Notes: generated by a model from the sequence alone, not told the origin. 64,000 nt of DNA from an uncultured Lentisphaeraceae bacterium (GCA_964386865.1 CAYLUN010000010.1:20754-84753); one strand, 5' to 3'; positions 4,973-55,088 are shown, numbered from the stretch's first letter. Numbers and translations: made by a program.

Positions 4973-4980
4973 AGGTTTTT

Positions 4981-6147: not shown

Positions 6148-6196
6148 CGCGTAGAGACGCGGCGCCCTGTTGAGAGACGCTAGCACGTGGCACGTC

Positions 6197-6256
6197 GCTG
6201 CGCGGTAGGGACGCCGCCCCGTCGGCGTCCGCGGACGGCAGGGGCTGCCGTCCCTA
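6197..6256. repeat. REP-like GC-rich palindromic element, copy A (between convergent genes)
   Basis: GGTAGGGACG...CGTCCCTACC 10-bp outer stem with nested GACGCCG/CGGCGTC and GGACGGCAG/CTGCCGTCC stems. A ~47-bp core (GCGGTAGGGACGCCGCCCCGyCGGCGTCCGCGGACGGCA) recurs at 20562. Confidence 0.55.
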
Positions 6257-6400
6257 CCTCGCCTCGTGATCGCTCCAACCGAGCGGATGCCGGGCCTGAC
6301 GCCCTCATGACCGTGCAGGTCTTTGTCCAAAGCGCTATCGATTTCGATACTGCGCCGCAACCGCTCTCGATCTTGCTCCCATTTTACAGTCCCAACATCC

Positions 6401-6540
6401 AGATCATGCCGCCCTCCGACCTCTGACCTCCGACCTCCGCCCTCTGACCTCTGACCTCCGCCCTCTGACCTCCGCCCTCTGACCTCCGCCCTCCGCCCTC
6501 TGACCTCCGCCCTCTGACCTCCGCCCTCCGCCCTCCGAAC
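6401..6540. repeat. heptanucleotide tandem repeat array (CCTCYGM)n, ~18 units; reverse complement is (GGTCAGA)n
   Basis: Direct reading: CCTCTGA CCTCCGA CCTCCGC CCTCTGA ... Sits immediately 3' of radC (minus strand). A same-family array in opposite orientation is at 17620-17695. Confidence 0.9.
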
Positions 6541-6542
6541 CC

Positions 6543-11923: not shown

Positions 11924-12052
11924 CTTACCAAAACCGCAGGCCGTTGGGAAGCACCGCGTTGGCGGCCCGTTTCGTGCGCCCGATTCGGGCCTGCTTTGCC
12001 GCGCGAGGATTCTCGGCCGGCAGGGGAGGGGCCGCTCTGCCTCCGCCCCGCT

Positions 12053-14953: not shown

Positions 14954-15091
14954 GGTGCATAAGGTGCCAAACTAGGTCGGATAAGGCAAGAGGGAAGAGG
15001 GGGCGCAAGCTCGAATTGCCCGGGCTTGCGAAGCGGGGGTGGAACTGCCATAATACAACCTTCTTTTTCTTTTCCCAAGAAGGTGGACTCC

Positions 15092-17619: not shown

Positions 17620-17695
17620 GCCGGAGGCCGGAGATCAGAGGTCAGAGGTCAGAGATCAGAGGTCAGAGATCAGAGGTCAGAGGTCAGAGCCTCGC
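17620..17695. repeat. heptanucleotide tandem repeat array (GRTCAGA)n, ~9 units
   Basis: GATCAGA GGTCAGA GGTCAGA GATCAGA ... sits immediately 3' of the UAP gene stop. Same heptamer family as 6401-6540 but on the opposite strand. Confidence 0.9.
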
Positions 17696-17736
17696 CAACC
17701 AACCAAACAACGCATTCAACTTCTTAAGGAGACAAC

Positions 17737-25288: not shown

Positions 25289-25990
25289 ATGCAGGTCAAA
25301 GAGGAAAGACGTGTTTGGCGCAAGTCAGGTGTTAGCCAGTTGTCGGCAAGACTGAGACGGCTCGGCTGTGCCGTGAGCGCCGCCCTGCTTGCGACGGCGT
25401 TGCGGGCCGGTGATTACACCTAGACGACCAACAGCGGGATCGCCGCCCTGGGAACCGAGGCCTTCTGGCTCTGCGGCGCCCTGACCAACGTCACGCTACG
25501 CGGCTTGCCGGAACGTATCTTGAACGAGTTCGGCGAGCCCTCTTGGCCGTCGCTCGCGAGCGTGTTCGACAGCCTGTCGTACGCGGCGGTCATCGCGGAG
25601 GGCGTGGCGGAGGGCCGCGACTACGCCTTCGAGGGATGTGCGGGACTGGTTCGCGTTTCTCTTCCCACTGGCCTCACGACTATTGGCACGCACGCCTTCA
25701 CCGAGTGTGCGGTAGCCGGCGTGTTCATTCCCGCCCAGGTGTCGTCGATCGGTAACGCCGCATTCTCTTGGTGCTGGCGGCTGGAATCGATCACGGTGGA
25801 CGGCGCGAACCCCCGCTACTGCAGCCTGAACGGTGTGTTGCTGGATCGGGCGGGGGGCGCGCTGGTGCAATGTCCCACGCGCAAGACGGGTGATTTCCCC
25901 GTTCCCGCTGACGTGACTCAACTCGCCGATTATGCCTTCGTGGGGTGCGCCTTGATGGACGGGCTCTACTTCAAAGAACGTTTCGTTGTT
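25289..25990 (+). pseudogene. BspA-type leucine-rich-repeat surface protein remnant with in-frame TAG (25421-25423), C-terminally merged in frame with the downstream SOR ORF
   Basis: ATG 25289 opens a signal-peptide-like 'RLRRLGCAVSAALLATAL', then TAG. The same frame continues with LRR_5 repeats ('IAALGTEAFWLCGALTNVTL', 'AFEGCAGLVRVSLPTGLTTIGTHAFTEC', 'SIGNAAFSWC'). No stop before the SOR start. Confidence 0.4.
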
Positions 25991-26053
25991 CTCAAAGCCG
26001 AATCATTTCGGCTATACTATAGCGCACAACTCCAAAAAGGAAGGATCACCATC

Positions 26054-26443
26054 ATGCTATCAGAATTCGTTAAGACAGCCGATTGGAAGAGCGAGAAGCA
26101 CGTTCCGGTCATCGTGTGCGCGGATAGCGCGGCCCCCGGCGCGGCGCTCGACATCACCGTGACGGTCGGCAAGGAGATCGCCCACCCGAACACCACCAAC
26201 CACCACATCTCGTGGATCGCCCTGCACTTCGTTCCGGCTGGCGCCAAGGCGTCGGTCGAGATCGGCCGCTGCGAGTTCACCGCGCACGGCGAGTCGGTCG
26301 AGGGTGCGGACAAGGGCCCGGCCTACACGGACAGCACGCTCTCGATCCGCGCCAAGCTCGCGGTCTCCGGCACGCTGTACGCCACGTCCTACTGCAACAT
26401 TCACGGCCTGTGGGCGTCGGAGAAGGCCATCGCGATCGTCTAA
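26054..26443 (+). CDS. superoxide reductase (neelaredoxin/desulfoferrodoxin centre II type)
   Basis: 129 aa. 'KHVPVI', 'HPNTTNHHISWIAL' and 'YCNIHGLW' give the SOR Fe(His)4Cys ligand pattern. RBS AAGGAAGGA upstream of ATG 26054. Confidence 0.8.
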   Translation: MLSEFVKTADWKSEKHVPVIVCADSAAPGAALDITVTVGKEIAHPNTTNHHISWIALHFVPAGAKASVEIGRCEFTAHGESVEGADKGPAYTDSTLSIRAKLAVSGTLYATSYCNIHGLWASEKAIAIV

Positions 26444-26510
26444 GGTCGGTGGCGAACGTTAGACCCTATGCGGGCAGGGGCTTTGCGCCCCTGCCTTTTC
26501 TTCATAGGCG

Positions 26511-27290
26511 TTACCGCTTCTTGTCCGCAATGCGGCCGATGAGGCGCAGCAGGCCGTCGAGGATCGTGAGCGGGTGGGGCGGGCAGCCCGGCACGTAGAG
26601 GTCGACCGGCACGATCGCGGACGCGCCATTGTTGGCCTCGGCGTGCCCGATGTAAGGCCCGCCCGAGATGGCGCACGCGCCGACGGCGATCACGATGCGC
26701 GGATCCGAGACGGCGTCGTAGGTTTTCCTGAGCGCGAGGGCCATGTTCTGCGAGACCGGCCCGGTCACCAGAAGGCCATCCGCGTGGCGCGGCGAGGCCA
26801 CGAACTGGATGCCGAAGCGGCCGAGGTCCCAGCCGACCGTGCCCAGCACGTTGGTGTCGGCCTCGCAGGCGTTGCAGCCGGCCGCGCTGACCTGCCGCAG
26901 CTTGAGCGAGCGGCCGAAGAGCGTCTTCAGCTTCGCGTCGAGCGCGGCGCCGGCGATCTCCACCGCCTCGCGTTCGCGGGCCACGAAGAGATCCTGGCGG
27001 CTGCGGGCCGCGAGCTGGTAGCAGGCGGAATGCGTGATGGCCTTCTGCGGGCAGGCGGTGGCGCACGCGGTGCAGAAGAGGCACTTGCCGATGTCGACGC
27101 GGCTGGGGTCTTGCGGGTTGATGGCGCCGGTCGGGCACGCGTCAAAGCAGGCGCGGCAGCCGTCCGCGCATATGGCCGTATCGAACACCGGGCGCCCGCG
27201 GAAGCGGTCGGGCAGCGGCGGGGGCGCGCCGTCGGGATAGGCGATCGTGCGGTGTTTCTGCTGCAGTCGGGCGAGGGTGGCTTTGATCAT
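26511..27290 (-). CDS. Ehr/Hyf-type complex: fused 2x[4Fe-4S] ferredoxin (HyfH/NuoI-like) + NuoB-like small subunit (HyfI-like)
   Basis: N-terminal 'CADGCRACFDACP' and 'CLFCTACATACP' ferredoxin motifs. C-terminal 'GCNACEAD', 'VGACAISGGPY', 'VPGCPPHP' form the NuoB/hydrogenase small-subunit Cys set. Start overlaps the upstream stop (ATGA). Confidence 0.75.
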   Translation of the reverse strand: MIKATLARLQQKHRTIAYPDGAPPPLPDRFRGRPVFDTAICADGCRACFDACPTGAINPQDPSRVDIGKCLFCTACATACPQKAITHSACYQLAARSRQDLFVAREREAVEIAGAALDAKLKTLFGRSLKLRQVSAAGCNACEADTNVLGTVGWDLGRFGIQFVASPRHADGLLVTGPVSQNMALALRKTYDAVSDPRIVIAVGACAISGGPYIGHAEANNGASAIVPVDLYVPGCPPHPLTILDGLLRLIGRIADKKR

Positions 27291-28819
27291 AGGTCGTGTC
27301 CGCAGTAGGAGAGGTTGAAGCTCTTGTTGCAGATCGGGAAGTCCGAGATCTCCTGATTGCGCAGGGCGTAGGCGAGGCCGGGCCAGTTGTGGAAGGAGGG
27401 GTCGACCACCTTGTAGCGGGCGAAGCGGCCCTGCGCGTCGGTGATGGCCACGTGGCAGACTTCGCCGCGCCAGCCTTCGTTGAGGGCGACCGCGAAACGG
27501 TTCGGCGCAAGCGCCCGCACCGGGACGCGCGCGGCGCCGCCGGGGAGCGCGTGGAGCTGATTGCGGATGAAGGCGATCGACTGCTCGATCTCCAGCCCGC
27601 GCATGAAGGCGCGGGCGAAGACGTCGCCGGTCTCGCAGGTGGAGACCGGAATGTGCGTGAAGCAGAAGATGCCGGAGGGCTGGTCGCGCCGCACGTCGCG
27701 CTCGAGGCCGGAGGCGCGGGCGGCGGGTCCGACGAGCCCCAGCTCGGCCGCGACGGAGCGCGGGACGGGGCCGACGTCTTCGAACCGCGCCATGACCGAC
27801 TGCGTATTCCAGAGCAAGTTGACGGCGACAGAGGTGTCTTTCTCGCCCGCGTCGAGGCGGCGTCCGAGCTCGGCGGCGCGTTCGGCGTCGAGGTCGAAGC
27901 CGACTCCGCCCGGCCGGACGAGGCCGCGGCCGAAGCGGCTGCCGCACAGCAGGGCCGTCATGTTGAGGAAGTCGCCGCGGATGCGGCCGCAGAAGCTGGC
28001 CGTGGGCAGAAAGCCGACGTCGCCGGCCAGCGCGCCGAGGTCGCCGACGTGGTTGGCGAGGCGCTCCAGCTCGAGCGCGATGCCGCGCACGGCCTGGGCG
28101 CGCGCGCTGGTCTGGCACGCCGCGAGCTCTTCGATGAGCTGGCAGCAGGACGTGGTGTGGGCGACGGTGGAGTCGCCGGAGAGGGTCTCGGCGTAGTGGA
28201 TCGTGCGGGCGTTCGGGCCGCCGAGCAGGGCCTCCTCCACGCCGCGGTGCTGGTAGCCGAGGGCGATCTCGAGGTGGAAGACCTGCTCGCCGTGGCATTG
28301 GAAGCGGAAGTGGCCGGGCTCGATGACGCCCGCGTGGACGGGGCCGACCGCGACCTCGTGCACCTCGTCGCCGTCGACGCGGTAGAAGTCGCCCACGGCG
28401 GGCAGGATGGGCTGGCCGGCGGGGCGGCCCCAGGCGTCGCGCCCCGTCCAGGAGCGGCGGTAGCGCACGGGCTTGAGCCACGGGTGGCCGGCGGGGCGGA
28501 GCCCGAACTGCTCGGCGAGCTCGCGCTCGAACAGGTGCGCCTGCGGGCAGCGCGGCGTGAGCGAGGGGAACTCGCTGCCTGCGACGTCGGCGGCGGCGGC
28601 GAAGAGCAGGTTCTGCTCGTCGTCGGCGAGGACGGCGTAGAGGCGGGTCGCGCCGGGCAGCGGCGAGGCGGCGCCGAAGAGGGCGCTGACGCGCTGGCGG
28701 GCGGCGGCGGCGCTCAGGATGGCCTGGCCGAAGTCGGCCAGTGAGAGCACGGGGATTTCCGACAGGTCGACGGACTGGCCGTTGGTCAGCGCGGCGAGCT
28801 CGGGGCGGACGTCGCTCAT
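27287..28819 (-). CDS. Ehr-type 'large subunit' (fused NuoC-NuoD / HyfG-HycE-like) lacking the N-terminal NiFe-ligating cysteines
   Basis: 510 aa. 'GPVHAGVIEPGHFRF' is the conserved NuoD/HycE block. Canonical L1 motif ERxCGxCxxxH reads 'ETLSGDSTVAH' (both Cys -> Ser). C-terminal 'DFPICNKSF...YCGHDL' departs from DPCxxCxxH. Confidence 0.8.
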   Translation of the reverse strand: MSDVRPELAALTNGQSVDLSEIPVLSLADFGQAILSAAAARQRVSALFGAASPLPGATRLYAVLADDEQNLLFAAAADVAGSEFPSLTPRCPQAHLFERELAEQFGLRPAGHPWLKPVRYRRSWTGRDAWGRPAGQPILPAVGDFYRVDGDEVHEVAVGPVHAGVIEPGHFRFQCHGEQVFHLEIALGYQHRGVEEALLGGPNARTIHYAETLSGDSTVAHTTSCCQLIEELAACQTSARAQAVRGIALELERLANHVGDLGALAGDVGFLPTASFCGRIRGDFLNMTALLCGSRFGRGLVRPGGVGFDLDAERAAELGRRLDAGEKDTSVAVNLLWNTQSVMARFEDVGPVPRSVAAELGLVGPAARASGLERDVRRDQPSGIFCFTHIPVSTCETGDVFARAFMRGLEIEQSIAFIRNQLHALPGGAARVPVRALAPNRFAVALNEGWRGEVCHVAITDAQGRFARYKVVDPSFHNWPGLAYALRNQEISDFPICNKSFNLSYCGHDL

Positions 28820-30249
28820 GGCTGGCCCTCCAGGAAGAGCACCGCGTCGCGGACGAGCGCGTTGAGCGGGGCGGGGATGTAGACGCCCACGAGCAGGACG
28901 AGCAGCATGAGGCCCAGGATCGGCCCGGCGGTCAGGAAGCTGTCGCGGTACGGCGTGTTGCGGGCCTCGAAGGAGGCGCGGCCCTGAACCACCTTGAGGA
29001 CGGTCGCGCCCATGCCGACGAAGACCACCAGCAGCAGGAAGAGGAAGAGCCCGCCGATGGCGATGTGCCCGGCGTCAAACGCGCCGTTGAGGATGGAGAA
29101 CTCGCTGATGAAGGGCCCGAAGGGCGGCGAGCCGGTGATGGCGAGGAAGCCGACGAGGAAGAGGGTGCCGGAGAGCGGCAGGCGCCGCATCGCGCCGCAC
29201 ACCTGGTCGGTGCTCTTGCTGCCGTAGGCGCGGTGGATGTTGCCGGCGGAGAGGAAGAGCACGCCCTTGGTCAGGCCGTTGGTCACCACGTGCAGCAGCG
29301 TGCCGAAGAGCGCGGGTGCTCCGAGCCCGAGGCCCAGCACGAGGATGCCCATGTGCTCGACGCTGGAGTAGGCGAGCATGCGCTTGAAATCGCGCTGGCC
29401 GACCATGAAGAGGCAGGCGACCGCCATCGAAAGCAGGCCCATGAAAAGCAGCAGGCGCGACACGTACGCGCTTTCGCCGGCCGCGATGCAGATGTGGTAG
29501 GTGCGCAGCAGCGCGAGGAAGGCGCAGTTCGTCACGCCGCCCGCGAGCATCGCGCCGACGAGGCCGGGCGCCTCGCCGTAGGCGTCGGGCTTCCACGTGT
29601 GCATGGGGGCGAGGCCCATCTTGGTGCCGTAGCCCACGAGCAGCAGCACGAACGCCGCGTGCAGCCAGGGCTTGGAGAGCTTCGGCGCGTGGGCCAGCAG
29701 GCTCTCAAACGTGAGCGAGGTCTCGAGGCCGGTGTGCAGGGAGGCGTAGGCGAGGAAGAAGGTGCCCAGCAGCGCGAGGGCGATGCCGACCGAGCCGACG
29801 AGCAGGTACTTCCACGTGGCCTCGATGCTGCGCTGCGTATGGTTGAAGAAGATCAGCGGCGCGGTCGCGAGGGTGGTGCCCTCGATGGCCACCCACATGA
29901 GGCCGAGGTGGTGCGCCCACGTCACCAGCGTCATGATGCCCAGAAAGGCCAAGAGGCAGGCGCAGAACACGCGGTTGGGCCGCTCCTCGCGGAAGCGGAG
30001 GTAGCCGACCGCCGAGAACGACACGAAGAAGAACAGCGTGCTGACGACCGGCAGGATCAGCTTGCCGAGCGGGTCGAGCACCAGCCACGCCGCGCTGACG
30101 CACCGGGCGGGGTCGAGCAGGGTGTAGACGGTCAGCGCGAGGTGCGCGACGCCCGCCACGGGCAGCACCCACGGCCGCAGCCGGTTGGAGGGGATGGCCG
30201 CCGCGACGGCGGCCAGCAGCAGCGGCATGAAGATGAGGGCGAAAGCCAT
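28816..30249 (-). CDS. Ehr/Hyf complex antiporter-like membrane subunit (HyfF/NuoN-like)
   Basis: 477 aa polytopic protein with Proton_antipo_M-type conserved core ('MLAYSSVEHMG', 'LFLSAG'). Confidence 0.75.
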   Translation of the reverse strand: MAFALIFMPLLLAAVAAAIPSNRLRPWVLPVAGVAHLALTVYTLLDPARCVSAAWLVLDPLGKLILPVVSTLFFFVSFSAVGYLRFREERPNRVFCACLLAFLGIMTLVTWAHHLGLMWVAIEGTTLATAPLIFFNHTQRSIEATWKYLLVGSVGIALALLGTFFLAYASLHTGLETSLTFESLLAHAPKLSKPWLHAAFVLLLVGYGTKMGLAPMHTWKPDAYGEAPGLVGAMLAGGVTNCAFLALLRTYHICIAAGESAYVSRLLLFMGLLSMAVACLFMVGQRDFKRMLAYSSVEHMGILVLGLGLGAPALFGTLLHVVTNGLTKGVLFLSAGNIHRAYGSKSTDQVCGAMRRLPLSGTLFLVGFLAITGSPPFGPFISEFSILNGAFDAGHIAIGGLFLFLLLVVFVGMGATVLKVVQGRASFEARNTPYRDSFLTAGPILGLMLLVLLVGVYIPAPLNALVRDAVLFLEGQP

Positions 30250-30251
30250 GG

Positions 30252-30893
30252 CTACTCCTTCAGCGAAACCAGCCTGCGCGTGTCCATCGAGGCGAACGCC
30301 TGGTTGATTTGGTTGACGATGATGCAGATCACGAAGATGGCGACGAAGAGGTCGAGCAGCACGCCCATCTCGACGACGAGCGGCATGGCCTCGACCAGAA
30401 GCATGCCGAAGATGAAGATGCCGTTTTCAAGCACGAGGTAGCCCATCACTTGGGTGAGCGCCTTGAAGCGGGTGGTCAGCAGGATGAAGCCGACGAGCAC
30501 GGTGGCGATGGACGTGGGCACGAGCAGCGCGCCGGCGTGCTGCTCGGCGAGCGGCAGCTGGTCGGCGAAAAGGAGCGCGAACACGGTGCCCAGCGCGCCG
30601 AGGATCACCGACGGCTGCAGGCCGATCAGCGGCTCCACCTCGCGCTTGATTTTGACGTCGCGCAGCGCGCGGCTCATCATGGCCGGGATCACGATACCCT
30701 TGAGCGCGATGGTGATGACGACGGTCAGCGCCGTCGTCAGCGTGGAGTGCTCGTGCAGCAGGAGCGGCAGGAGCCCCAGCAGCGCGCCTTGGAGCGCCAC
30801 GGTGCGCACCACGGAGACGATCCGGCTCGTGCCCAGCGCGAAGAGGTTGAGCACCAGCACAAAGACGAGGAGGGTGTTGAGAAGGTTGGTCAT
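30252..30893 (-). CDS. Ehr/Hyf complex small membrane subunit (HyfE-like)
   Basis: 213 aa, ~6 TM helices. Position between the HyfC-like and HyfF-like genes matches hyfE in the hydrogenase-4 operon. Confidence 0.65.
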   Translation of the reverse strand: MTNLLNTLLVFVLVLNLFALGTSRIVSVVRTVALQGALLGLLPLLLHEHSTLTTALTVVITIALKGIVIPAMMSRALRDVKIKREVEPLIGLQPSVILGALGTVFALLFADQLPLAEQHAGALLVPTSIATVLVGFILLTTRFKALTQVMGYLVLENGIFIFGMLLVEAMPLVVEMGVLLDLFVAIFVICIIVNQINQAFASMDTRRLVSLKE

Positions 30894-30897
30894 ACGG

Positions 30898-31806
30898 TCA
30901 CCTGATTAGAAGAATGAAGCCGAAGCCGCAGAAGAGCAGCGCGCCCACCAGCAGGTAGGGCACGTGCCGCATTTGAAGGCGGGCCGTCACCGATTCCACC
31001 ACGCCGATAATGGCCGCCAGCCCCACGAGCTCCATGAGGTAGAGCGGCCAGTCGAGGTAGCTGCGGCCGGTGGCGAAGGGGGCCACCACGTGCAGCAGCA
31101 CGGTGCCGAGCACGAGCAGTTTGACCGACGAGGCGTAGAGGATCAGGCCGAAGAGCGGGCCGCTGTGGTCGAGCACCATGGCCTCGTGAATCATCGTCAG
31201 CTCGAGGTGGGTGGTCGGGTCGTCCACGGGGATGCGGCAGGTCTCGGCCAGCATGACGATGAACAGCCCGATCGAGATCAGCACCAGCGGCGCGGCGACG
31301 TCTGCGGAGAGGGCGAGCGAGGGGCCGTGCAGCATGGGCGCGAGCGAGAGGGAACCCGAGATCTTCGCCAGCACGAGGAAGGCGAAGAAGAGCGCTGGCT
31401 CAGAAAGGCAGGCGAAGGTCACCTCGCGCGCGGAGCCCATGCCCTCGAAGGCCGAGCCCGTGTCCAGCGCGGCCGTGGTCGTGAAGAACCGCGCCAGGCC
31501 GAAGAGGTAGGCGAAGAGGATGAGGTCGCCCGTGAAGGAGATCGGCGCGCCGAACGCGCCAAAGGGGATCAGCAGCCCGGCGAGCAGGACGGCGGCCAGC
31601 GTCACAACCGGGCCGGCGCGGAAGACCCACGTGGTCGTGTCGCTGATCACCATGCCCCGCTGGAGCAGCTTGGCGATGTCGTAGTACGGCTGCAGCAGCG
31701 GCGCGCCGACGCGGCCCGCGAACCACGCTTTGGTCTTGGTGATGACGCCGAGCAGGAGCGGAGGCGCCAGCAGCAGCACGACGATATGGATCAGGGTGTC
31801 GATCAT
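30898..31806 (-). CDS. Ehr/Hyf complex NuoH-like membrane subunit (HyfC/HycD-like)
   Basis: 302 aa. NuoH/HycD-like conserved helices ('LLQPYYDIAKLL', 'LAETCRIPVD'). Confidence 0.8.
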   Translation of the reverse strand: MIDTLIHIVVLLLAPPLLLGVITKTKAWFAGRVGAPLLQPYYDIAKLLQRGMVISDTTTWVFRAGPVVTLAAVLLAGLLIPFGAFGAPISFTGDLILFAYLFGLARFFTTTAALDTGSAFEGMGSAREVTFACLSEPALFFAFLVLAKISGSLSLAPMLHGPSLALSADVAAPLVLISIGLFIVMLAETCRIPVDDPTTHLELTMIHEAMVLDHSGPLFGLILYASSVKLLVLGTVLLHVVAPFATGRSYLDWPLYLMELVGLAAIIGVVESVTARLQMRHVPYLLVGALLFCGFGFILLIR

Positions 31807-31812
31807 GGCTTG

Positions 31813-33813
31813 TTAACTCCCGGCGTTGCCCCACACGAGCAAGACGATCATGACGATCAAGATGTACAGCACGTAGAGATGCGTCTGGCCCTGCTGGAGC
31901 ACGCGCAGCCGCGGCAGGTAGCGCCCGGCGGCTAGGAACAGCGGCGTCGCCAGCCGGTCCAGCACGGCGTCTGGCACGAGGCTCTTGAAGGCCGAGGGCC
32001 GCGGGAAGAGGCCCCGCAGGGCGGTCCGGCAGTCCCGTGGCCACAGCAGGAAGGAGGTGAGGCGGACCAGGGAGTTGCCGAGCGACGAGCCGGTGTACTG
32101 CATGCGGGCGGTGGGCCGCGCGTAGCCGCAGTCCCAGGTCGGCCCCCTCCTGACGGCCTGCTTCCGCAGGGCCGCCCTGAGGAGCGCAAGCACGGCTCCC
32201 GCGAGCGCCAGAAGCGCGAGGTCGGCCACGGTGAAGCACGCCAGCGGGGCGGCTGAGGCGAGGGAGCTCGCGGCGGCGGCCGGCGGGAACCACGACCGGA
32301 CCGCGGCGTCCAGCAGCGGAGTCGCGAGAAAGGGCGCGAGGCCGAGGGCCGCACACCCGCCGGCGAGCAGCGCCATGGGCCCGAGCATGGCTGCGTCCGG
32401 GTCATGCGCCGCACGGGCTGTGGCCTCGGCGCGCGGCGCGCCGAGGAAGACCGCGCCGAGCACCTTCACGAAACAGGCGACCGCCAGCGCGCCGGCCGCG
32501 GCGAGTGCCACGACCGCCAGAGCGGCGGCGGGCAGGCCGGGCGCGCCGCCCTGGCCCAGCGTCTGGAAGAGGCCCAGATAGAGCAGCCACTCGCTGGCAA
32601 AGCCGTTCAGCGGCGGCAGCGCGCAGATGGCGACCGCGCCCACCACAAACAGCGCCATGACGCGCGGGGCGCGCTTGGCGAGGCCGCCCATGCGGTCGAT
32701 CTCGCGCGTGCCCGTCGCGTGGATGACCGCGCCGGCATTGAAGAAAAGCAGCGATTTGAAAAGCGCGTGATTCCAGACGTGCAGCAGCGCGCCGCCCAAG
32801 CCCAGCACGACCCACGCCGGATGTCCGGCGGGGGCGCCGTGGCAGCGGCCCAGGAGCGCCAGCCCGAGGCCCATGGCGATGATGCCGATGTTCTCGATGC
32901 TGCTGTAGGCGAGCAGCCGCTTCAGGTCGCGCTGGCCGATGGCGTACGCGATGCCCGCCACGCTGGAGCACGCGCCTGCCGCGAGCAGCGTGGCGCCCCA
33001 CCAGACCTCGCCGCCCGGCAGCAGGGCGGTCAGGCGGACGAGGCCGTACACGCCCATTTTGAGCATCACGCCGGACATCACGGCCGACACGTGGCTGGGC
33101 GCGTTGGCGTGCGCGCCGGGCAGCCAGACGTGCAGCGGCATGAGGCCCGCCTTGAAGCCGAAACCGACCAGCGCGAGCGCGAAGAGCGCGTTCGCCGTCG
33201 CGGCGGGCAGCCCCAGGTGCGCCTCCAGCGCGAACGAGCCGGTCGCGTGGCGCCAAAGCGCGAAAAGAGCGAAGAGGCAGAGCGTGCCGACGTGCGTGGC
33301 GATCAGGTAGATCCAGCCCGCGCGGCGGACCTCGGGCTTGTCGTCCTCCGCCGTGGCCGCGAAGTAGGCGGCGAGCGCCATGATCTCCCAGGCGAGCAGG
33401 AAGAGCATGCCGTCGCGCGCGATGACGACCAGCGCCATCGCTCCGGCCAGCACGCCGTAGGCAAGGTTCAGGCGGCGGCCGTTGGCCGGGTGCTCGGCCT
33501 GCTTCCAGTAGCCGAGGCCGTAGACGGCGCCGCAGGCTGGCACGACGAACACGGGCAGCAGGAAGACCGCGCTGAGCGTGTCCAGCCCCACGGCGAACCG
33601 GCTCAGCGGCAAGCCCCAGGGCAGGCTCAGCGCGGGGGCTTGCGGCGCGCCGAAGGCCAGCGCGACGGCGGCGAGCCCCAGCAGGCTGCCCGCCAGCAGC
33701 AGCCCGACGGCCAGCCGCTGTCCGGCGGCCGAGCGGGCGGACAGCAGGCAGCCCGGCAGGCCGCTCAGCAGCATGAGGGCGATAGCGAGTAGCAGAATGA
33801 AAAAGATGTTCAT
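31813..33813 (-). CDS. Ehr/Hyf complex antiporter-like subunit, paralog 2 (HyfB/NuoL-like)
   Basis: 666 aa. Proton_antipo_M core ('GLMPLHVWLPGAHANAPSHVSAVMSGVMLK', 'LLAYSSIENIG'). Confidence 0.8.
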   Translation of the reverse strand: MNIFFILLLAIALMLLSGLPGCLLSARSAAGQRLAVGLLLAGSLLGLAAVALAFGAPQAPALSLPWGLPLSRFAVGLDTLSAVFLLPVFVVPACGAVYGLGYWKQAEHPANGRRLNLAYGVLAGAMALVVIARDGMLFLLAWEIMALAAYFAATAEDDKPEVRRAGWIYLIATHVGTLCLFALFALWRHATGSFALEAHLGLPAATANALFALALVGFGFKAGLMPLHVWLPGAHANAPSHVSAVMSGVMLKMGVYGLVRLTALLPGGEVWWGATLLAAGACSSVAGIAYAIGQRDLKRLLAYSSIENIGIIAMGLGLALLGRCHGAPAGHPAWVVLGLGGALLHVWNHALFKSLLFFNAGAVIHATGTREIDRMGGLAKRAPRVMALFVVGAVAICALPPLNGFASEWLLYLGLFQTLGQGGAPGLPAAALAVVALAAAGALAVACFVKVLGAVFLGAPRAEATARAAHDPDAAMLGPMALLAGGCAALGLAPFLATPLLDAAVRSWFPPAAAASSLASAAPLACFTVADLALLALAGAVLALLRAALRKQAVRRGPTWDCGYARPTARMQYTGSSLGNSLVRLTSFLLWPRDCRTALRGLFPRPSAFKSLVPDAVLDRLATPLFLAAGRYLPRLRVLQQGQTHLYVLYILIVMIVLLVWGNAGS

Positions 33814-33834
33814 ACGGAAGTCAGAGGTCGGCGG

Positions 33835-35850
33835 TCAGCGCGCGAACCACTGCGCAAGGAAGGCTTTGAACGGGAACAGGGTGCTGAGTAAGGCGAGCAA
33901 GGTCAAGAGGATGTAGAGCACGTAGTGTTGGGTCAGCCCGCGCTGGAAGCGGTGGAACCAGCCGAACCCGCTCTCGATGCGGGCTCCGGCGGGCAGCAGC
34001 AGGCGGTCGAGCACCGCGTCGTCTACGTGGCTGTGCATGTGGGACGGTTGAGGGAAGAGCCCGGACACGCGCGGCCGCCGGCCGTGCGGGCGGAGCACCC
34101 GGACGAAAAGGAGGACGATTGTCTGGGCGAACGAGGAGGCGGTGTACTGCATCCGCGCGGTGGGGCGCGCGTAGCCGCAGTCCCACGTGGGGCCGGTTCG
34201 CGGCGCGGCGGCCTGCCGCCTCAGCAGGCGGGCGAGCCCGGCGGCGCAGGCGAGGAGGGAGAGTGCCAGCACGCTGATCGCGCCGACCGGCGCGAGCTGG
34301 GCGAGCCGTGCGGGCGCGAGCGAGGTGCCCGTGAGCCAGCAGGCGCACGAGGCGTCGAGCACCGGCGCGACGAGCGCGGGCGCGACCCCGATCAGCACGC
34401 AGCAGGCGGCGAGAGCCGCCATCGGCAGGCGCATCGTGAGGGGCGCCTCGCGGGCGTGCGCCGCCGCCCGGGTGCGCGGCTCGCCGAGGAAAACGGCGCC
34501 GTACACCTTTACGAAGCAGGCGACCGCCAGCGCGCCGACGGCGGCCAGCACGGGCACGCCGATGACGGCGGAGACGGTGCCCGGCCCGGCGGCGGTCGCG
34601 CGGCTCAGCAGGCCGAGGTAGACGAACCACTCGCTGACGAAGCCGTTCAGCGGGGGCAGGCCGCAGATGGCGACCGCACCGATCAGGAAGCAGGCGGCGG
34701 TCCACGGCATGGCCTTAGCGAGGCCGCCCAGGCGGTCGATCTGGCGCGTGCGTGCGGTGTGGACCACCGCGCCGGCGCAGAGGAAGAGCAGGGACTTGAA
34801 GAAGCTGTGGTTCCAGACGTGCAGCAGGCAGCCCGCGAGGCCGAGCGCGACCCAGTCCGCGCGGCCGGCGGAGCGGCCCAGCAGGGCCACGCCGAGGCCC
34901 ATCAGGATGATGCCGATGTTCTCGACGCTGTGGTAGGCGAGCAGGCGCTTGAGGTCGTGCTGGCCGAGGGCGAACACGACGCCCAGCAGGCCGCTGGCCG
35001 CGCCCAGGAGGAGGATCAGCGCGCCCCACGCGGCCGGCGGGTCTGGCAGCAGCGTCAGCCAGCGCACGAGGCCGTAGATGCCGGTCTTGAGCACGACGCC
35101 CGAGAGCATGGCCGAGACGTGGCTCGGTGCGCTGGCGTGGGCGCCGGGAAGCCAGAAGTGCAGCGGCATCATGCCGGCCTTGAGGCCGAAGCCGATCAGC
35201 ACGAGCAGGAACAGGAGGTTCGACAAGCCCGGCCCGAACGCGCCGGGAGCGGCGGGCTCGAGGGCGTACGAGCCTGTCGCGTGACGCCACAGCGCGAAGA
35301 GCGCGAAGAGCGTCAGCGTGCCCACATGCGTGGCGAACAGGTAGATCCAGCCCGCGTCGCGGCTCTCCGCGCGCTGGTCCTCGGTGGAGACTAAGAAGAA
35401 AGCGGAAAGCGCCATGAACTCCCAGCCCAGCAGGAAGGTCAGCGCGTGGCGGCTGACGATCAGCAGCGCCATGCCCGCGACCATCAGGCCCCAGAAGAGG
35501 CGCAGCTTGCGGCCGTTGCCGGGGTGGCGGCGCTGGGGCCAGTAGCCGAGGCCGTAGATGGGGCCGAGCGCGCCCATGAGGAAGACCGGCACGAGGAAGA
35601 ACGCGCTCAGCGGGTCGAGCCCGACCAGGCCGTTGCCGGCAGCCGGCCACGGGAAGAAGGAGGCGGGCGCCGCGCTGCCGCGGGTGCCGCACAGTGCTCC
35701 GGCGGCGCCGGCGAGCCCCACGAGGCCGGAGGCGGCCATCAGGATCACCGCGAGGCGCTCGCCCCGGCCTGACGCGCGCGGCAAGGCCGCGCCCGGAAAC
35801 CCGCTGGCGGCCGCAAGGGCGATGGCGAAGATGATCAGGTCGAGGAACAC
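33835..35850 (-). CDS. Ehr/Hyf complex antiporter-like subunit, paralog 1 (HyfB/NuoL-like)
   Basis: 671 aa. Same family as 31813..33813 ('MMPLHFWLPGAHASAPSHVSAMLSGVVLK', 'LLAYHSVENIG'); tandem duplication. Confidence 0.8.
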   Translation of the reverse strand: MFLDLIIFAIALAAASGFPGAALPRASGRGERLAVILMAASGLVGLAGAAGALCGTRGSAAPASFFPWPAAGNGLVGLDPLSAFFLVPVFLMGALGPIYGLGYWPQRRHPGNGRKLRLFWGLMVAGMALLIVSRHALTFLLGWEFMALSAFFLVSTEDQRAESRDAGWIYLFATHVGTLTLFALFALWRHATGSYALEPAAPGAFGPGLSNLLFLLVLIGFGLKAGMMPLHFWLPGAHASAPSHVSAMLSGVVLKTGIYGLVRWLTLLPDPPAAWGALILLLGAASGLLGVVFALGQHDLKRLLAYHSVENIGIILMGLGVALLGRSAGRADWVALGLAGCLLHVWNHSFFKSLLFLCAGAVVHTARTRQIDRLGGLAKAMPWTAACFLIGAVAICGLPPLNGFVSEWFVYLGLLSRATAAGPGTVSAVIGVPVLAAVGALAVACFVKVYGAVFLGEPRTRAAAHAREAPLTMRLPMAALAACCVLIGVAPALVAPVLDASCACWLTGTSLAPARLAQLAPVGAISVLALSLLACAAGLARLLRRQAAAPRTGPTWDCGYARPTARMQYTASSFAQTIVLLFVRVLRPHGRRPRVSGLFPQPSHMHSHVDDAVLDRLLLPAGARIESGFGWFHRFQRGLTQHYVLYILLTLLALLSTLFPFKAFLAQWFAR

Positions 35851-35881
35851 GCGGACTCCTGTGAGGTTGGGCTTCGCGCCG

Positions 35882-36583
35882 CTAGTGGGCGCAGGAACCT
35901 CCCGGGGCCGGATGGGCCGCGGCCTCCGCGGCGGCGATCAGCCGCATCAGCTCCGCCTGCGGGGCCTGCCGCTTCAGCGCGGCCTTGACCTCCGGTTTGC
36001 GGATGACGAAGCCCAGGCGCGAAAGCAGGTGCAGGTGCGTCTTGACCGTCGGGCTGATGAGCGTGAAGAGAATGTTGACGGGCTTGTCGTCGACCGCGTG
36101 GAAATCGATCGGGGTCTCCAGAAAGCAGAGCGTCACGGTCGGCTTGGCGACGCGCAGCACCACGGGGTTGCGCACGTGCGGGATCGCGATGCCGTCGCCG
36201 ACTCCCGTGGAGCCCATGCTCTCGCGTGCCAGCAGGATCTGGTAGAGGAACTCGCGGTCGAGTTCCTCCGGCAACTTCAGGACGTCGACGATAGCCCGCA
36301 GCACGGAGGCCGGGTCGTTGCCGCCGACCTTGTAGGCCACCCCGCCTGCGGTCAGTGCGGCGGAGAGGGTCGGGAGCTGGGGCGTGTTGGGCTCGCCGGC
36401 GTTGAAGAGGTCGGGCGAGATCTGGATGTTGCGGGCCGTGGCCCACTCCAGCAGTTCGGAGCGGTTGAAGCGGATCTGTTCGTTCATGGAGTGGGAGGGT
36501 ATCTCCTCCCGCTTGACCCACTCGTAGACTGTGTCTTCGGACACGTTCAGAAGCGCCGCCGCGTCTTTCACCGACAGTTGCAT
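35882..36583 (-). CDS. transcriptional regulator: N-terminal MerR/excisionase-type HTH fused to PTS EIIA type-2 (PtsN/EIIA-Ntr-like) domain
   Basis: 'LLNVSEDTVYEWVKREEIP' HTH_17-like helix. 'GVGDGIAIPHVRN' is the EIIA-2 phospho-His signature. Ends 31 nt upstream of the first Ehr gene on the same strand. Confidence 0.7.
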   Translation of the reverse strand: MQLSVKDAAALLNVSEDTVYEWVKREEIPSHSMNEQIRFNRSELLEWATARNIQISPDLFNAGEPNTPQLPTLSAALTAGGVAYKVGGNDPASVLRAIVDVLKLPEELDREFLYQILLARESMGSTGVGDGIAIPHVRNPVVLRVAKPTVTLCFLETPIDFHAVDDKPVNILFTLISPTVKTHLHLLSRLGFVIRKPEVKAALKRQAPQAELMRLIAAAEAAAHPAPGGSCAH

Positions 36584-36671
36584 TCGATCCGCTCCGCAGG
36601 CTGATCACCTGCCACCGACCGCGCGCCATGTGTCACGCCGATCTGAAAATATCAACCGGACAAAGCCGAAA

Positions 36672-36716: not shown

Positions 36717-36792
36717 TGGTGGAGCGAAGGAGATTCGAACTCCCGACCCCCACGTTGCGAACGTGATGCTCTACCAACTGAGCTATCGCCCC
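36717..36792 (-). tRNA. tRNA-Ala (anticodon CGC)
   Basis: Reverse complement GGGGCGATAGCTCAGTTGGTAGAGCATCACGTTCGCAACGTGGGGGTCGGGAGTTCGAATCTCCTTCGCTCCACCA. G3:U70 Ala identity pair. Anticodon loop TTCGCAA. Encoded CCA. Confidence 0.85.
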
Positions 36793-38477: not shown

Positions 38478-38554
38478 TGGCGCCCCTGGCAGGACTTGAA
38501 CCTGCGACCCACGGATTAGAAATCCGTTGCTCTATCCGACTGAGCTACAGGGGC
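38478..38554 (-). tRNA. tRNA-Arg (anticodon UCU)
   Basis: Reverse complement GCCCCTGTAGCTCAGTCGGATAGAGCAACGGATTTCTAATCCGTGGGTCGCAGGTTCAAGTCCTGCCAGGGGCGCCA. Anticodon loop TTTCTAA. Encoded CCA. Confidence 0.85.
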
Positions 38555-38767
38555 GTGGAATGGGCAATAGAATATCGGAGTGACGGCGCGGTTGGAAGAG
38601 AAAAGTGGCCCGGCGGCGGACGGCGGGGCGGAGGTTCGAGAGGCGGGCGGCCTCCGGCGTGTGGCGCACGCGAAAACGGGACGCTTGACCGGCGGGGGGC
38701 GTCAGGGTAAAGTATGGCCCTCACAGATATCCGAGTGGTAGCGGTTTTGAACAGCGAGGAGTATGAG

Positions 38768-39448
38768 ATGAATTTGACAACAGGCGCTCAGTTGCAGCGC
38801 GGCGTGATCGTGGAGTTCGATTTTGCGGTTCTTCCGGGGCACCGGACTCTGCTGGACATCTGCAGCGCGCGGCTCGCGAAAGAGGGCGTCAAGCTCGACG
38901 CGACCCTGATGGCGCGCTGCATGGCCGGCAAGTCGTTCTCCGCCGGGCTCAACGCGCTCTGCAACCGCCAGCAGAAGACCGTCGACGTGCCCGCGGTGAT
39001 CGCGGAGTGCAACGAGGCGTTCGCCGAAGCCCTCAAAGGCGCGCTGGGCAAGGTGCCGGCCGGCTTCTCCGCGTTCGTGGGCGCGCTGCTCGCCAAAGGC
39101 CTGAAGGTGGTGCTGGTGTCGCGCGCCGACGCGGATGCGGTGAAGGCCGCCTTCGCGGGCCACGCGACCGACAAGCTGTCGGTTCTGCACGACATCTCAA
39201 GCGGGTTCGGCTTCCTCGGCTGGGACGCTTGGCGCCGCGCCGCGCGCAAAAGCGACCTGCATGAGCGGCTGTGCGTGGCCGTGGCCGGCAGCGGCTCTTC
39301 GGTGAAGGGCGCGCTGACCTCCGGCATGGGCGTGCTGGTCAAGGTCAACCCCGTGTGCGAATATCAGGACATCAGCGGGTGCGACACGCAGATCGCCGAG
39401 TACGCGGCCGGGCTGGCCGACGACGTGCTCCGCATCCTGCGCGTCTAG
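38768..39448 (+). CDS. hypothetical protein, possibly degenerate HAD-like fold
   Basis: GAGGAG RBS 6 nt before ATG 38768. 'VIVEFDFAVL' resembles HAD motif I but lacks the second Asp. Function unknown. Confidence 0.45.
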   Translation: MNLTTGAQLQRGVIVEFDFAVLPGHRTLLDICSARLAKEGVKLDATLMARCMAGKSFSAGLNALCNRQQKTVDVPAVIAECNEAFAEALKGALGKVPAGFSAFVGALLAKGLKVVLVSRADADAVKAAFAGHATDKLSVLHDISSGFGFLGWDAWRRAARKSDLHERLCVAVAGSGSSVKGALTSGMGVLVKVNPVCEYQDISGCDTQIAEYAAGLADDVLRILRV

Positions 39449-54944: not shown

Positions 54945-55088
54945 GAAGCCTCATCCGCGTCGACGTGAGGCGTCGCGCGCGTCACGATGCGCCCGTATCT
55001 TTCGGTGGCGCGGGAGGGCCGCCTGAAGGCGGTACACCTGCGCTGGACGGGTTGGTGTCCCGGCTCAGTTCTTAGAGGAGGTGTGAAG

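Follow-up and report, generated by a model that had tools for sequence, protein, structure and literature searches.

Positions 26511-36583 of the window, i.e., of the whole 64-kb stretch of DNA that was analysed, are occupied on the minus strand by one tightly packed operon, in which adjacent genes are spaced by 2 to 31 nt or overlap by 4 nt. The first gene of the unit encodes a 233-aa regulator (35882..36583). It is followed on the same strand by the genes for two EhrA-type antiporter-like subunits, namely subunit 1 (HyfB/HycC/NuoL-like, 671 aa, 33835..35850) and subunit 2 (HyfB-like, 666 aa, 31813..33813), the NuoH/HyfC/HycD-like membrane subunit EhrB (302 aa, 30898..31806), the HyfE-like membrane subunit EhrC (213 aa, 30252..30893), the HyfF/NuoN-like antiporter-like subunit EhrD (477 aa, 28816..30249), the large subunit EhrL of the fused NuoC+NuoD type (510 aa, 27287..28819), and the small subunit EhrS, in which a 2x[4Fe-4S] ferredoxin is fused to a NuoB-like domain (259 aa, 26511..27290). 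All seven structural genes that the initial annotation had described as co-directional and arranged as in hydrogenase 4 (Hyf) were found, and their Pfam and NCBIfam assignments agree.

The regulator gene is an eighth one inside the interval, which had previously been missed. Its product combines an N-terminal HTH_17 domain (excisionase/MerR-like; PF12728 at 5e-15) with a C-terminal PTS EIIA type-2 domain (PF00359 at 5e-24). The EIIA domain is PtsN/FruA-like, with the NCBIfam PtsN-like matches lying below the cut-off, and it carries the conserved phospho-acceptor motif GIAIPH, whose His136 is retained in 97% of 36 homologues. A homologue of the regulator immediately precedes the operon, in the same orientation, in 33 of the 54 loci whose upstream sequence spans 900 bp or more. 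At the other end of the operon, a terminator-like G+C-rich hairpin followed by a T-run (26472..26496, no strand assigned; 10 pairs, 8 of them GC) lies where the genes for EhrS and superoxide reductase converge, between their stop codons. Judging by its match to the consensus, it likely represents the end of the transcription unit.

Membrane and iron-sulfur subunits

The operon encodes, in one cluster, a NuoH-like subunit (PF00146) and three antiporter-like subunits (PF00361). Antiporter subunit 1 matched PF00361 at 1e-54 and NF005086 ('hydrogenase 4 subunit B') at 1e-175, its top solved match being HycC (7z0s_C, 2e-73). It carries Glu144 in TM5, Lys224 in TM7, Lys255 in TM8 and Glu407 in TM12, as well as a C-terminal TWDCGY motif; the four charged residues are 94-100% conserved among 82 homologues. 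Subunit 2, which is 55% identical to subunit 1, matched PF00361 at 1e-47 and NF005086 at 4e-164. Over 80 loci, EhrA-type genes were found in one or two copies per locus, with a single copy in most family members. EhrD (PF00361 at 3e-47; NF005044, 'hydrogenase 4 subunit F', at 7e-95) has Glu123 in TM5, Lys210 in TM7 and Glu383 in TM12, and is devoid of the TM8 Lys. EhrB (PF00146 at 1e-30) matched solved proteins in the order HycD (7z0s_D, 1e-29), MbhM (3e-19), MbsM (1e-7) and complex I ND1 (1e-5). EhrC was recognised by NF008556 ('hydrogenase 4 membrane subunit') through a match (9e-19) that falls short of the curated cut-off, with neither a Pfam match nor a solved homologue; its position is conserved in related loci.

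In EhrS, all 12 Fe-S cysteines are present. The N-terminal HyfH/HycF/NuoI-like domain, which matched MbhN, HycF and NuoI, bears those of two [4Fe-4S] clusters (Cys 41, 45, 48, 52, 70, 73, 76 and 80), while the C-terminal NuoB/HycG/MbhJ-like domain bears the CxxC...C...C site of the proximal cluster (Cys 139, 142, 206 and 236). The latter four align with the cluster ligands of MbhJ, which bears out the earlier statement that the small subunit keeps all four [4Fe-4S] cysteines. EhrS matched PF01058 at 3e-25, Fer4 families and MbhJ at 3e-29. Among 75 crudely called homologues, each of the 12 ligand cysteines is kept in 85-96% of sequences (89-96% for the proximal-cluster four), unlike the non-ligand C90.

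The former NiFe site of EhrL

The large subunit matched PF00346 and PF00329, with HycE as a solved homologue (7z0s_E, 3e-48), and its AF2 model (pLDDT 92.8) gave HycE as the top fold match (TM 0.89, predicted structure). PF00374 was not matched by EhrL in Pfam, although it is matched by the sister four-Cys enzymes. The initial annotation had claimed that both cysteines of the L1 motif are replaced by serine and that the C-terminal L2 motif DPCxxCxxH is lost. The residue alignment with HycE showed both replacements. The sequence ETLSGDSTVAH, encoded at exactly 28157-28189, aligns with RVCGICGFAHS of HycE, so that both L1 cysteines are Ser in EhrL (S214 and S217); at the C-terminus, SFNLSYCGHDL aligns with SLDPCYSCTDR, which places Ser504 and Gly507 at the L2 ligand positions. 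Thus, four of the four NiFe cysteines are gone relative to E. coli HycE, and neither group-4 motif, RxCGxCxxxH (L1) or CxxCxx(H/R) (L2), was found in EhrL, which reads ETLSGDSTVAH and LSYCGHDL instead. Cys506 is kept, but at a non-ligand position between both L2 ligand sites. The EhrL reading frame is uninterrupted; therefore, it contains no selenocysteine codon and no frameshift. The EhrL terminus coincides with the position of the HycE processing site.

To compare residues, 66 Ehr sequences were set against 122 four-Cys relatives. The four NiFe ligand positions are 97% Cys in the relatives, whereas in Ehr they are occupied by Ser/Ala, Ser/Thr/Ala, Ser (97%) and Gly (100%), respectively. Since Ser is not conserved family-wide at the first two positions, the exchange of Cys for Ser is not a functional substitution. 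Arg212, Arg472 and Arg510 are also lost in Ehr, and few residues are newly conserved; Asp216 is Ehr-specific (94% conserved). Cys497 and Cys506 are conserved in 73% and 61%, respectively, and do not covary. Compared with the four-Cys hydrogenases, the former active site shows mostly relaxed constraint. The hydrogenase-type beta1-beta2 loop GPVHAGVIEPGHFRF, which includes Glu167, is kept, and the coupling loop of EhrL is conserved to the same degree as in true hydrogenases.

The Ehr family and its relatives

The name Ehr (energy-converting or Ech hydrogenase-related) was reportedly introduced by Coppi in 2005 for a Geobacter sulfurreducens complex (GSU0739-0745), and the survey of Marreiros et al. 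(2013, BBA 1827:198) is said to cover it. We know of no Ehr complex that has been characterised biochemically. The description of Ehr as a poorly characterised family agrees with the literature, which assigns it no physiological role (PMC6349859, PMC10284858, 10.1101/765248). The Geobacter complex shares with the window two NuoL/HyfB-like, NuoH-like, HyfE-like and HyfF-like subunits, a Cys-less large subunit and a small subunit; for GSU0739-0745 this likeness is drawn from the published subunit list (PMC7894505) and from Geobacter relatives. The large subunit of the window shares 57-58% identity with its counterparts in Geobacter sp. and Geomonas limicola. The same family also includes Geobacter grbiciae and G. 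pickeringii, and the locus of the latter shows the seven-component layout. The arrangement differs in that both HyfB-like genes of the window are tandem and co-directional, with the HTH-EIIA regulator at the head, whereas in Geobacter-type loci (L027, L029, L043) one HyfB-like gene is divergent and paired with the regulator; in G. pickeringii, one HyfB-like gene is divergent and the regulator is absent.

The assignment to Ehr made initially is supported on every point at the level of sequence, with a Cys-less group-4-type large subunit, an intact NuoB-type site, and NuoH-like and antiporter-like subunits all present. As these seven components also occur in species of Geobacter, the genus for which the name Ehr was introduced, the locus is, judged by its gene content, an ordinary member of a widespread, already known family and not a new kind. 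In a scan of GTDB species genomes, this family gave at least 597 matches in many phyla, and the gene order Reg-A(1-2)-B-C-D-L-S is conserved across its loci. Between members of different phyla, the large subunits share 72-93% identity. When the operon was compared with that of one relative (85-93% amino-acid identity across the eight genes, 93% for the large subunit), dN/dS values of 0.10-0.21 were obtained for all eight genes, thus indicating that all of them are under purifying selection; the large subunit, at 0.12, ranks with the most constrained.

The Cys-less proteins group into a single clade in a 188-sequence neighbour-joining tree, and the sister of this clade is a group of four-Cys Firmicutes hydrogenases with the same operon layout. 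These group 4f-type enzymes (a label taken from PMC10284858 and not assigned in this analysis) occur, e.g., in Desulfosporosinus orientis DSM 765, Sporomusa and Desulfitobacteriaceae. They have the identical B-C-E-F-L-S order, a fused NuoC-NuoD and usually a fused ferredoxin+NuoB; accordingly, the HyfB-C-E-F-G-(H+I)-type architecture of the window recurs in the same order in D. orientis and in a second four-Cys locus. The DFPxxNKSFxL C-terminal context and the beta1-beta2 loop are common to both, and neither has a C-terminal extension past the L2 motif. At 34-37% amino-acid identity to the window, however, the Firmicutes enzymes keep the four NiFe cysteines, Arg212, Arg472, the terminal Arg and PF00374, and are devoid of the HTH-EIIA gene.

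The best solved matches belong to E. coli FHL (Hyc, PDB 7Z0S), i.e., HycE (3e-48, TM 0.89), HycC (2e-73) and HycD (1e-29), and HycC shares a C-terminal W-x-CGY motif with the antiporter-like subunit of the window. Relative to E. coli Hyc (7Z0S)/Hyf, the window lacks the NiFe site, HycB and the FdhF partner, and its HycF and HycG equivalents are fused; it also has additional HyfE- and HyfF-type subunits. With complex I it has in common homologous NuoB, C, D, H, I and L/M/N modules, three antiporter-like subunits and the absence of a NiFe site. Nevertheless, complex I scores below FHL for every subunit, and the NuoB-like domain has the hydrogenase-type CxxC instead of the tandem CC of NuoB. NuoA/J/K and NuoEFG were found neither in the operon nor in the 64-kb window, a HyfE-like subunit being present instead. 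In an ungapped phmmer alignment (2fug_4), the quinone ligands His38 and Tyr87 of T. thermophilus Nqo4 correspond to Ile166 and Gly215 of EhrL, which are nearly invariant across the family. The placement of Ehr between group-4 hydrogenases and complex I therefore holds as evolutionary wording and not as a measured intermediate, since the complex I quinone ligands are absent and every subunit is closer to FHL/Hyf.

Proposed mechanism and alternative readings

Ehr thus has the build of a hydrogen producer in which the Fe-S wire is kept and the NiFe catalytic site is gone. Probably, the complex derives from a Hyf/4f-type enzyme that lost its NiFe site once, and is a membrane-bound Fe-S ion-translocating machine kept by selection in many phyla and working with ferredoxin. 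We consider ion pumping driven by ferredoxin the most probable mechanism, for which we infer the donor, the electron direction, the pumping, the acceptor and the mode of regulation. Reduced ferredoxin, e.g., from the pyruvate/2-oxoacid:ferredoxin oxidoreductases of this anaerobe, would dock on the N-terminal two-cluster domain of EhrS, and electrons would then move on to the proximal [4Fe-4S] cluster in the NuoB-like domain, where EhrS, EhrL and EhrB meet. There, an acceptor other than H+ would be reduced, with a membrane quinone as the first candidate and a small soluble oxidant as the second; sequence comparison identified no acceptor site in Ehr, Ile166 and Gly215 standing in place of the complex I quinone ligands. 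Charge or protonation changes in the retained hydrogenase-type pocket (Glu167 of the beta1-beta2 loop, His221 and the Ehr-specific Asp216) may then be relayed via EhrB and EhrC to the two EhrA and one EhrD subunits, which would export H+ or Na+. The HTH-EIIA protein may make operon expression depend on how far a PTS-type relay is phosphorylated.

A bolder and less probable reading is that Ehr, being neither a hydrogenase nor a complex I-type quinone reductase, represents a distinct, unnamed class of ferredoxin-linked energy converters. It would either exchange ions under redox gating or, as a pump, reduce a new acceptor in an acidic pocket free of metal (Glu167, Asp216, His221), and its expression would be wired to a PTS-EIIA phosphorelay through the HTH-EIIA protein found at the head of the operon in most lineages. 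In that case, an uncharacterised coupling site would be present in hundreds of bacterial species from more than ten phyla.

Somewhat unlikely is a redox-gated, Mrp-like cation/proton antiporter, in which the Fe-S chain would sense the redox state of ferredoxin and switch ion exchange on or off without any net reduction of a substrate. In E. coli, K+ transport is under the control of EIIA-Ntr, and the PtsN-like EIIA regulator at the head of the operon fits such a function, as do the fully intact antiporter modules, the chiefly lost constraint at the former active site, and the lack of any recognisable acceptor site or partner enzyme. However, three [4Fe-4S] clusters and a 510-aa large subunit would make a costly sensor with no precedent in the superfamily, and the coupling loop is as conserved as in true hydrogenases, so that turnover fits better than sensing.

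To our knowledge, no relative without a full NiFe site other than MBS has been characterised biochemically, which speaks for a ferredoxin:sulfane-sulfur (polysulfide) reductase of the MBS/Mbx type, where the proximal cluster and nearby cysteines would reduce the substrate. Pyrococcus furiosus MBS/Mbx (PDB 6U8Y) is a ferredoxin-dependent superfamily member that has given up H2 chemistry. In favour of this reading, Cys 497 and 506 flank the former site in the subfamily of the window, and the host, in its anoxic setting, apparently lives on sulfated polysaccharides. Even so, this reading is doubtful. MBS/Mbx is archaeal and a much more distant match (MbsL 65 bits vs. HycE 168 bits; MbsM 1e-7 vs. 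HycD 1e-29), which speaks against close homology, and its membrane module is another one with Mrp-type small subunits; no MrpB/C/E/F/G-like genes were found in the operon with Pfam and NCBIfam. Moreover, the two cysteines are not conserved family-wide, and many host lineages are not known as sulfur reducers.

It is very improbable that the operon is a decaying relic of an inactive, drifting hydrogenase. The catalytic ligands are lost and several hydrogenase-invariant positions are relaxed, and one recent paper treats the Geobacter Ehr, that of G. sulfurreducens, as non-functional (PMC13194489). This reading is already contradicted by the low dN/dS of all eight genes and of the large subunit in particular, by large-subunit identity across phyla, by intact reading frames and conserved order in hundreds of species, by conserved Fe-S ligands and antiporter charges, and by G. 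sulfurreducens proteomes, where Ehr subunits are detected and regulated (PMC7894505, PMC8691401). A working H2-evolving [NiFe]-hydrogenase (Hyf/group 4f) with a metal site built from other residues, for which the subunit architecture identical to that of four-Cys relatives, the top sequence and fold matches to E. coli FHL and the retained loop with its proton-relay Glu might speak, is hardly tenable and is contradicted by the sequence, as all four ligand Cys are absent, the L1 positions vary between S, A and T, PF00374 is unmatched despite the sister clade matching it, the hydrogenase-invariant Arg212 and Arg472 are lost, Cys 497 and 506 do not covary, and the uninterrupted frame holds no selenocysteine codon or frameshift.

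As for the neighbourhood, the initial annotation had also counted the absence of hyp genes, a maturation protease and formate dehydrogenase as support. None of these was found among the roughly 40 larger ORFs of the 64-kb window; this is weak evidence and not diagnostic, since such genes are missing next to bona fide four-Cys relatives as well. Within 6 kb, no conserved partner oxidoreductase was found in 80 loci. Both the superoxide reductase domain and the genes for 2-oxoacid:ferredoxin oxidoreductase, which had been taken to suggest ferredoxin-driven pumping, are real, but they are not conserved neighbours over 80 loci; the anaerobe-type superoxide reductase and the oxidoreductase genes support an anaerobic lifestyle only.

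Layout and flanking signals of the Ehr operon

Eight open reading frames follow one another on the minus strand from position 36583 to position 26511, in a window with a G+C content of ~0.64-0.74. Since they are separated by gaps of 2 to 31 nt or share 4-nt overlaps (ATGA at both the EhrD/EhrL and the EhrL/EhrS junctions), they look as expected for one translationally coupled operon. Pfam and NCBIfam searches showed that the seven genes of the initial annotation and their coordinates were correct, and revealed an eighth gene within 26511-36583 that its description had lacked. This gene encodes a regulator (35882-36583) with the Pfam domains HTH_17 and PTS_EIIA_2, called HTH-EIIA below. It is followed by two antiporter-like EhrA subunits matching ‘hydrogenase 4 subunit B’ of NCBIfam (33835-35850, 1e-175; 31813-33813, 4e-164; both under the equivalog cut-off), the NuoH-like EhrB (30898-31806; Pfam NADHdh), the HyfE-like EhrC (30252-30893; 9e-19, under the curated cut-off), for which no solved homologue was found, and EhrD, which matches ‘hydrogenase 4 subunit F’ (28816-30249; 7e-95, under the equivalog cut-off). 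The last two genes encode the large subunit EhrL (27287-28819), a Pfam Complex1_30kDa and Complex1_49kDa fusion with no match to NiFeSe_Hases (PF00374), and the small subunit EhrS (26511-27290), where Pfam finds a two-cluster ferredoxin domain fused to Oxidored_q6 (NuoB).

Directly upstream of the regulator, on the same minus strand, lies a tRNA-Ala(CGC) gene with its own terminator (36717-36792), and the same arrangement is found in the two closest related loci, L084 and L001. At the other end, a hairpin with a T-run (26472-26496) separates EhrS from the convergent superoxide reductase gene. The other tRNA of the window, Arg(TCT), lies at 38478-38554; the two tRNAs are the sole RNA matches, and no riboswitch or other known RNA was found in the operon leader. 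A candidate sigma-54 promoter, TGGCAG-N5-CAGC at 36600-36614, was rejected; matches to the -24/-12 elements were no commoner upstream of 61 scored Ehr operons than in control windows. A common operator in front of the regulator was likewise discarded: a four-sequence alignment gave only the tRNA-Ala synteny and a TTGAT(A/T)TT box in the two closest relatives.

Loss of the NiFe site and relation to hydrogenases and complex I

When EhrL was compared with all PDB sequences by phmmer, the best match was E. coli HycE (7Z0S chain E, 3e-48), followed by MbhL, Nqo4 and MbsL. A confident AlphaFold2 model built from 49 sequences (pLDDT 92.8) also had HycE as its best fold match (TM 0.89), then E. coli NuoCD. 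In the residue-level alignment, ETLSGDSTVAHT stands against RVCGICGFAHS of HycE in L1, and SFNLSY(CGHDL) against SLDPCY(SCTDR) in L2. The NiFe-ligand positions are thus occupied by Ser214 (codon 28178-28180), Ser217 (28169-28171), Ser504 (27308-27310) and Gly507 (27299-27301), as the initial annotation had claimed in reporting the L1 and L2 cysteines to be missing; Cys506 is a non-ligand residue between the former L2 cysteines. The last residue of EhrL corresponds to the HycE processing site. The initial annotation had named a frame shift hiding the cysteines as one case against itself; nothing interrupts the ORF, and NCBI records a protein 100% identical to its product, which excludes both a frameshift and a selenocysteine codon. 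Its further claim that the small subunit keeps all four [4Fe-4S] cysteines agrees with the alignment of EhrS Cys139, 142, 206 and 236 to the proximal-cluster ligands of MbhJ. Eight further EhrS cysteines, in two ferredoxin motifs, align to MbhN, HycF and NuoI.

Sixty-six Cys-less sequences were set against 122 Cys-bearing ones. Positions 214, 217, 504 and 507 are each 97% Cys in the four-Cys hydrogenases, whereas Ehr proteins carry S/A, S/T/A, S (97%) and G (100%), respectively. The arginines at 212, 472 and 510, invariant or nearly so in the hydrogenases, are lost in Ehr, and Ala/Val at 216 is replaced by Asp (94%); the beta1-beta2 loop GPxHAGxIEPGHFRF is conserved in both. The family signature of Ehr is [SA]-G-D-[STA] within L1 and, C-terminally, L-S-Y-x-G-x-D-L. 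A conserved functional Cys-to-Ser substitution was rejected in view of the variable positions (S/A and S/T/A), and so was a replacement metal site made of Cys497, Cys506 and His508, which are 73%, 61% and 53% conserved, with no covariation between the two cysteines.

Ehr has been placed phylogenetically close to group 4f (PMC10284858). Among the 50%-identity representatives, the nearest four-Cys sequences are 34-37% identical and have the unusual C-terminal context DFPxxNKSFxL-C-Y-S-C-T-D-R in common with Ehr; their relatives, from Desulfosporosinus, Desulfitobacteriaceae, Sporomusa and other Firmicutes, match PF00374. Two four-Cys loci show the B-C-E-F-L-S layout of the Ehr operon, and that of D. 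orientis also encodes a fused ferredoxin+NuoB subunit, but unlike the window both lack the HTH-EIIA regulator. In a neighbour-joining tree of the NuoD-like large subunit (MbhL root, limited sample, no support values), all 70 Cys-less sequences form one clade and all 118 four-Cys sequences another; the NiFe site was apparently lost in a single event. Four proteins, P0304, P0362, P0364 and P0398, were retrieved with a four-Cys query, yet have S, S/A/N, S and G at the ligand positions. The tree places them in the Cys-less clade, and they may represent the most deeply branching Ehr proteins, nearest to the hydrogenases.

The name Ehr is said to have been generalised by Marreiros et al. in 2013 (reference 16 of PMC6349859). 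In the passages of PMC7894505 and PMC13194489 that cite Coppi 2005, it is the name given to GSU0739-0745 of G. sulfurreducens. The window EhrL is 57-58% identical to the large subunits of a Geobacter MAG and of Geomonas limicola; as a query, the Geobacter MAG protein retrieves G. grbiciae and G. pickeringii, and the seven components listed for Ehr in the literature recur, in that layout, on the chromosome of G. pickeringii. The locus has all the features by which Ehr is defined at the sequence level, which supports the assignment to Ehr made at the outset. A [NiFe]-hydrogenase is ruled out because there are no NiFe ligands and no PF00374 match. Complex I was rejected too: Ile166 and Gly215 of EhrL take the positions of Nqo4 His38 and Tyr87, the NuoB-type domain of EhrS has CxxC where complex I NuoB has CC, and the complex I genes NuoA/J/K and NuoEFG are absent from the locus. 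Nor is the locus an MBS: that match is far more distant, and the Mrp-type small subunits are absent. The locus is therefore a new member of a known, widespread family and not a new kind of system; in itself it adds nothing categorically new, and its added value is comparative.

Spread, regulation and selection of the family

A word-indexed search of 90%-identity clusters gave at least 8000 EhrL matches at E <= 1e-10, the best 120 of them all at least 72% identical to the window protein, and an exhaustive search of 50%-identity cluster representatives gave 891 at E <= 1e-30. Scanning one genome per GTDB species yielded at least 597 matches. The best 80 of these loci represent Verrucomicrobiota, Kiritimatiellia, Lentisphaerae, Planctomycetota, Geobacterales, Acidobacteriota, Spirochaetota, Gemmatimonadota, Fibrobacteres, Omnitrophota, Chlamydiota, Myxococcales and others; the isolates Geomonas limicola (Red745) and Geothrix paludis (SG195) are among the hosts. 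When the eight window proteins were mapped onto crude ORF calls of these 80 loci, the order regulator, one or two HyfB-like, NuoH-like, HyfE-like, HyfF-like, large and small subunit was found nearly everywhere. Clustering of their 2014 flanking ORFs revealed no conserved partner oxidoreductase (FDH, hyp or others); the recurrent families are generic, namely sigma-54 activators (14 loci), SulP, kinases and ABC proteins. Two loci, L029 (13266-20584; Geobacteraceae MAG) and L050 (1-9989; Verrucomicrobia MAG), bear a second, more divergent B-C-(E)-F-L-S module beside the first, which indicates that some lineages have paralogous tandem Ehr-like operons.

Homologues are annotated as ‘Ni,Fe-hydrogenase III large subunit’, ‘carbon monoxide-induced hydrogenase’, ‘Formate hydrogenlyase subunit 5’ or ‘NADH-quinone oxidoreductase subunit C’. 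The first three names imply H2 catalysis and the last complex I, and neither is supported by the sequences. Anaerobic and facultative bacteria commonly possess Ehr complexes. The routine mis-annotation of these as hydrogenase III or NADH-quinone oxidoreductase distorts H2 and respiratory metabolism as reconstructed from MAGs.

Regulator-headed Ehr operons occur in most lineages, including the window, L001, L003-L011 and L084. Where the sequence in front of the operon is long enough (54 loci), the HTH-EIIA gene immediately precedes it on the same strand in 33; Geobacter-type loci have it in divergent orientation, paired with one HyfB-like gene. The EIIA phospho-acceptor motif GxAxPH (His136) is 97% conserved. 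Going by domain content and synteny only, the conserved regulator may place the operon under a PTS-type phosphorelay, and thereby under the carbon and energy status of the cell. A full-text search on both domain names found no paper pairing PTS_EIIA_2 with HTH_17.

For the eight genes, dN/dS was 0.10-0.21 against L084 (large subunit 93% identical) and 0.13-0.26 against L001 (82%), with the large subunit among the most constrained; the codon bias of a high-GC genome would, if anything, raise these values. Each of the 12 Fe-S cysteines of EhrS is retained in 85-96% of 75 crudely called homologues, and the non-ligand Cys90 is not. The HyfB-like subunits have the canonical TM5 Glu, TM7 Lys, TM8 Lys and TM12 Glu at 94-100% conservation; the HyfF-like one has no TM8 Lys and keeps the TM5 Glu (92%), TM7 Lys (100%) and TM12 Glu (89%). 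By these substitution rates the complex is under strong purifying selection and thus not a relic. Together with the conserved Fe-S cysteines and antiporter residues, they contradict the view of Ehr as a non-functional remnant (PMC13194489) and fit the proteomes of G. sulfurreducens, where Ehr is detected and regulated (PMC7894505, PMC8691401), with higher levels on formate (PMC7894505).

Predicted function and genomic neighbourhood

The complex combines an intact electron wire of three clusters, which ends where L, S and B meet, with an intact set of three antiporter-like modules and the retained hydrogenase-type coupling loop, all without a NiFe site. Reduced ferredoxin would be the donor, entering via the N-terminal domain of EhrS, because this domain is homologous to the ferredoxin-accepting MbhN/EchF-type subunit, no other input module is present, and 2-oxoacid:ferredoxin oxidoreductase genes are close by. 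The electrons would pass to an acceptor other than H+, and this transfer would drive the export of H+ or Na+. Quinone is the conventional guess for this acceptor, and a suggestion to that effect is cited in a passage of 10.1101/765248, but the known quinone ligands are missing from EhrL, and Ehr is reported from quinone-free genomes of Margulisbacteria (PMC6349859); the analogy with MBS makes sulfane sulfur a possible alternative. That Ehr is instead a redox-gated antiporter working without net catalysis seems to us rather unlikely. The comparison sharpens the problem of Ehr: a single apparent loss of the NiFe site, strong selection, a full Fe-S wire, the coupling loop and antiporter modules, and no conserved partner enzyme, yet a conserved PTS-type regulator. 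It also provides concrete handles for experiments in cultured hosts such as Geobacter, Geomonas limicola and Geothrix paludis.

A Pfam survey of the ~40 larger ORFs of the window found no hyp gene, hydrogenase protease or molybdopterin formate dehydrogenase, and did find a desulfoferrodoxin-type superoxide reductase domain and 2-oxoacid:ferredoxin oxidoreductase subunits; on both counts the initial annotation had described the neighbourhood correctly. The absences are weak evidence for Ehr, because the loci of the four-Cys relatives also lack adjacent hyp, protease and FDH genes. Those relatives, like EhrL, end at the L2 motif. Glycoside hydrolases are numerous in the survey, which also detected a sulfatase and a protein with a sulfatase-maturating (FGE) domain. 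This gene content and the names of the closest homologues (Kiritimatiellia, Lentisphaerae) point to a probable anaerobic polysaccharide degrader of the PVC group.

The superoxide reductase (desulfoferrodoxin from ~26054) shares the open frame 25505-26443 (plus strand) with an upstream BspA-type leucine-rich-repeat fragment (LRR_5, ~25613-25798), with no stop between them. Separate expression of the reductase is suggested by a promoter-like site at 25989-26018; the LRR_5 part may represent the remnant of a gene or be fused N-terminally to the reductase. At E <= 0.001, Pfam matched none of five larger ORFs, 43285-45393, 38714-39448 and 16341-17765 (plus strand) and 4936-5754 and 5884-7020 (minus strand). 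High third-position GC makes the first (702 aa) a probable gene, its family unknown; some of the last three may not be genes, since no frame there passed the third-position GC filter. The 1335-aa product of 57123-61130 (plus strand), adjoining the sulfatase gene 54969-57062, joins a hydrazine-synthase-alpha middle domain (PF18582, 2e-31) to a C-terminal FGE-sulfatase (formylglycine-generating enzyme-like) domain. In the 772-aa product of 9734-12052 (minus strand), GreA/GreB transcription-elongation-factor domains occupy only the last ~170 residues, and the N-terminal ~600 have no Pfam match. Its neighbour 12053-14971 (minus strand; 972 aa) fuses a MobA-like nucleotidyltransferase to a GHMP-kinase domain and may be a bifunctional sugar-1-phosphate kinase/nucleotidyltransferase.
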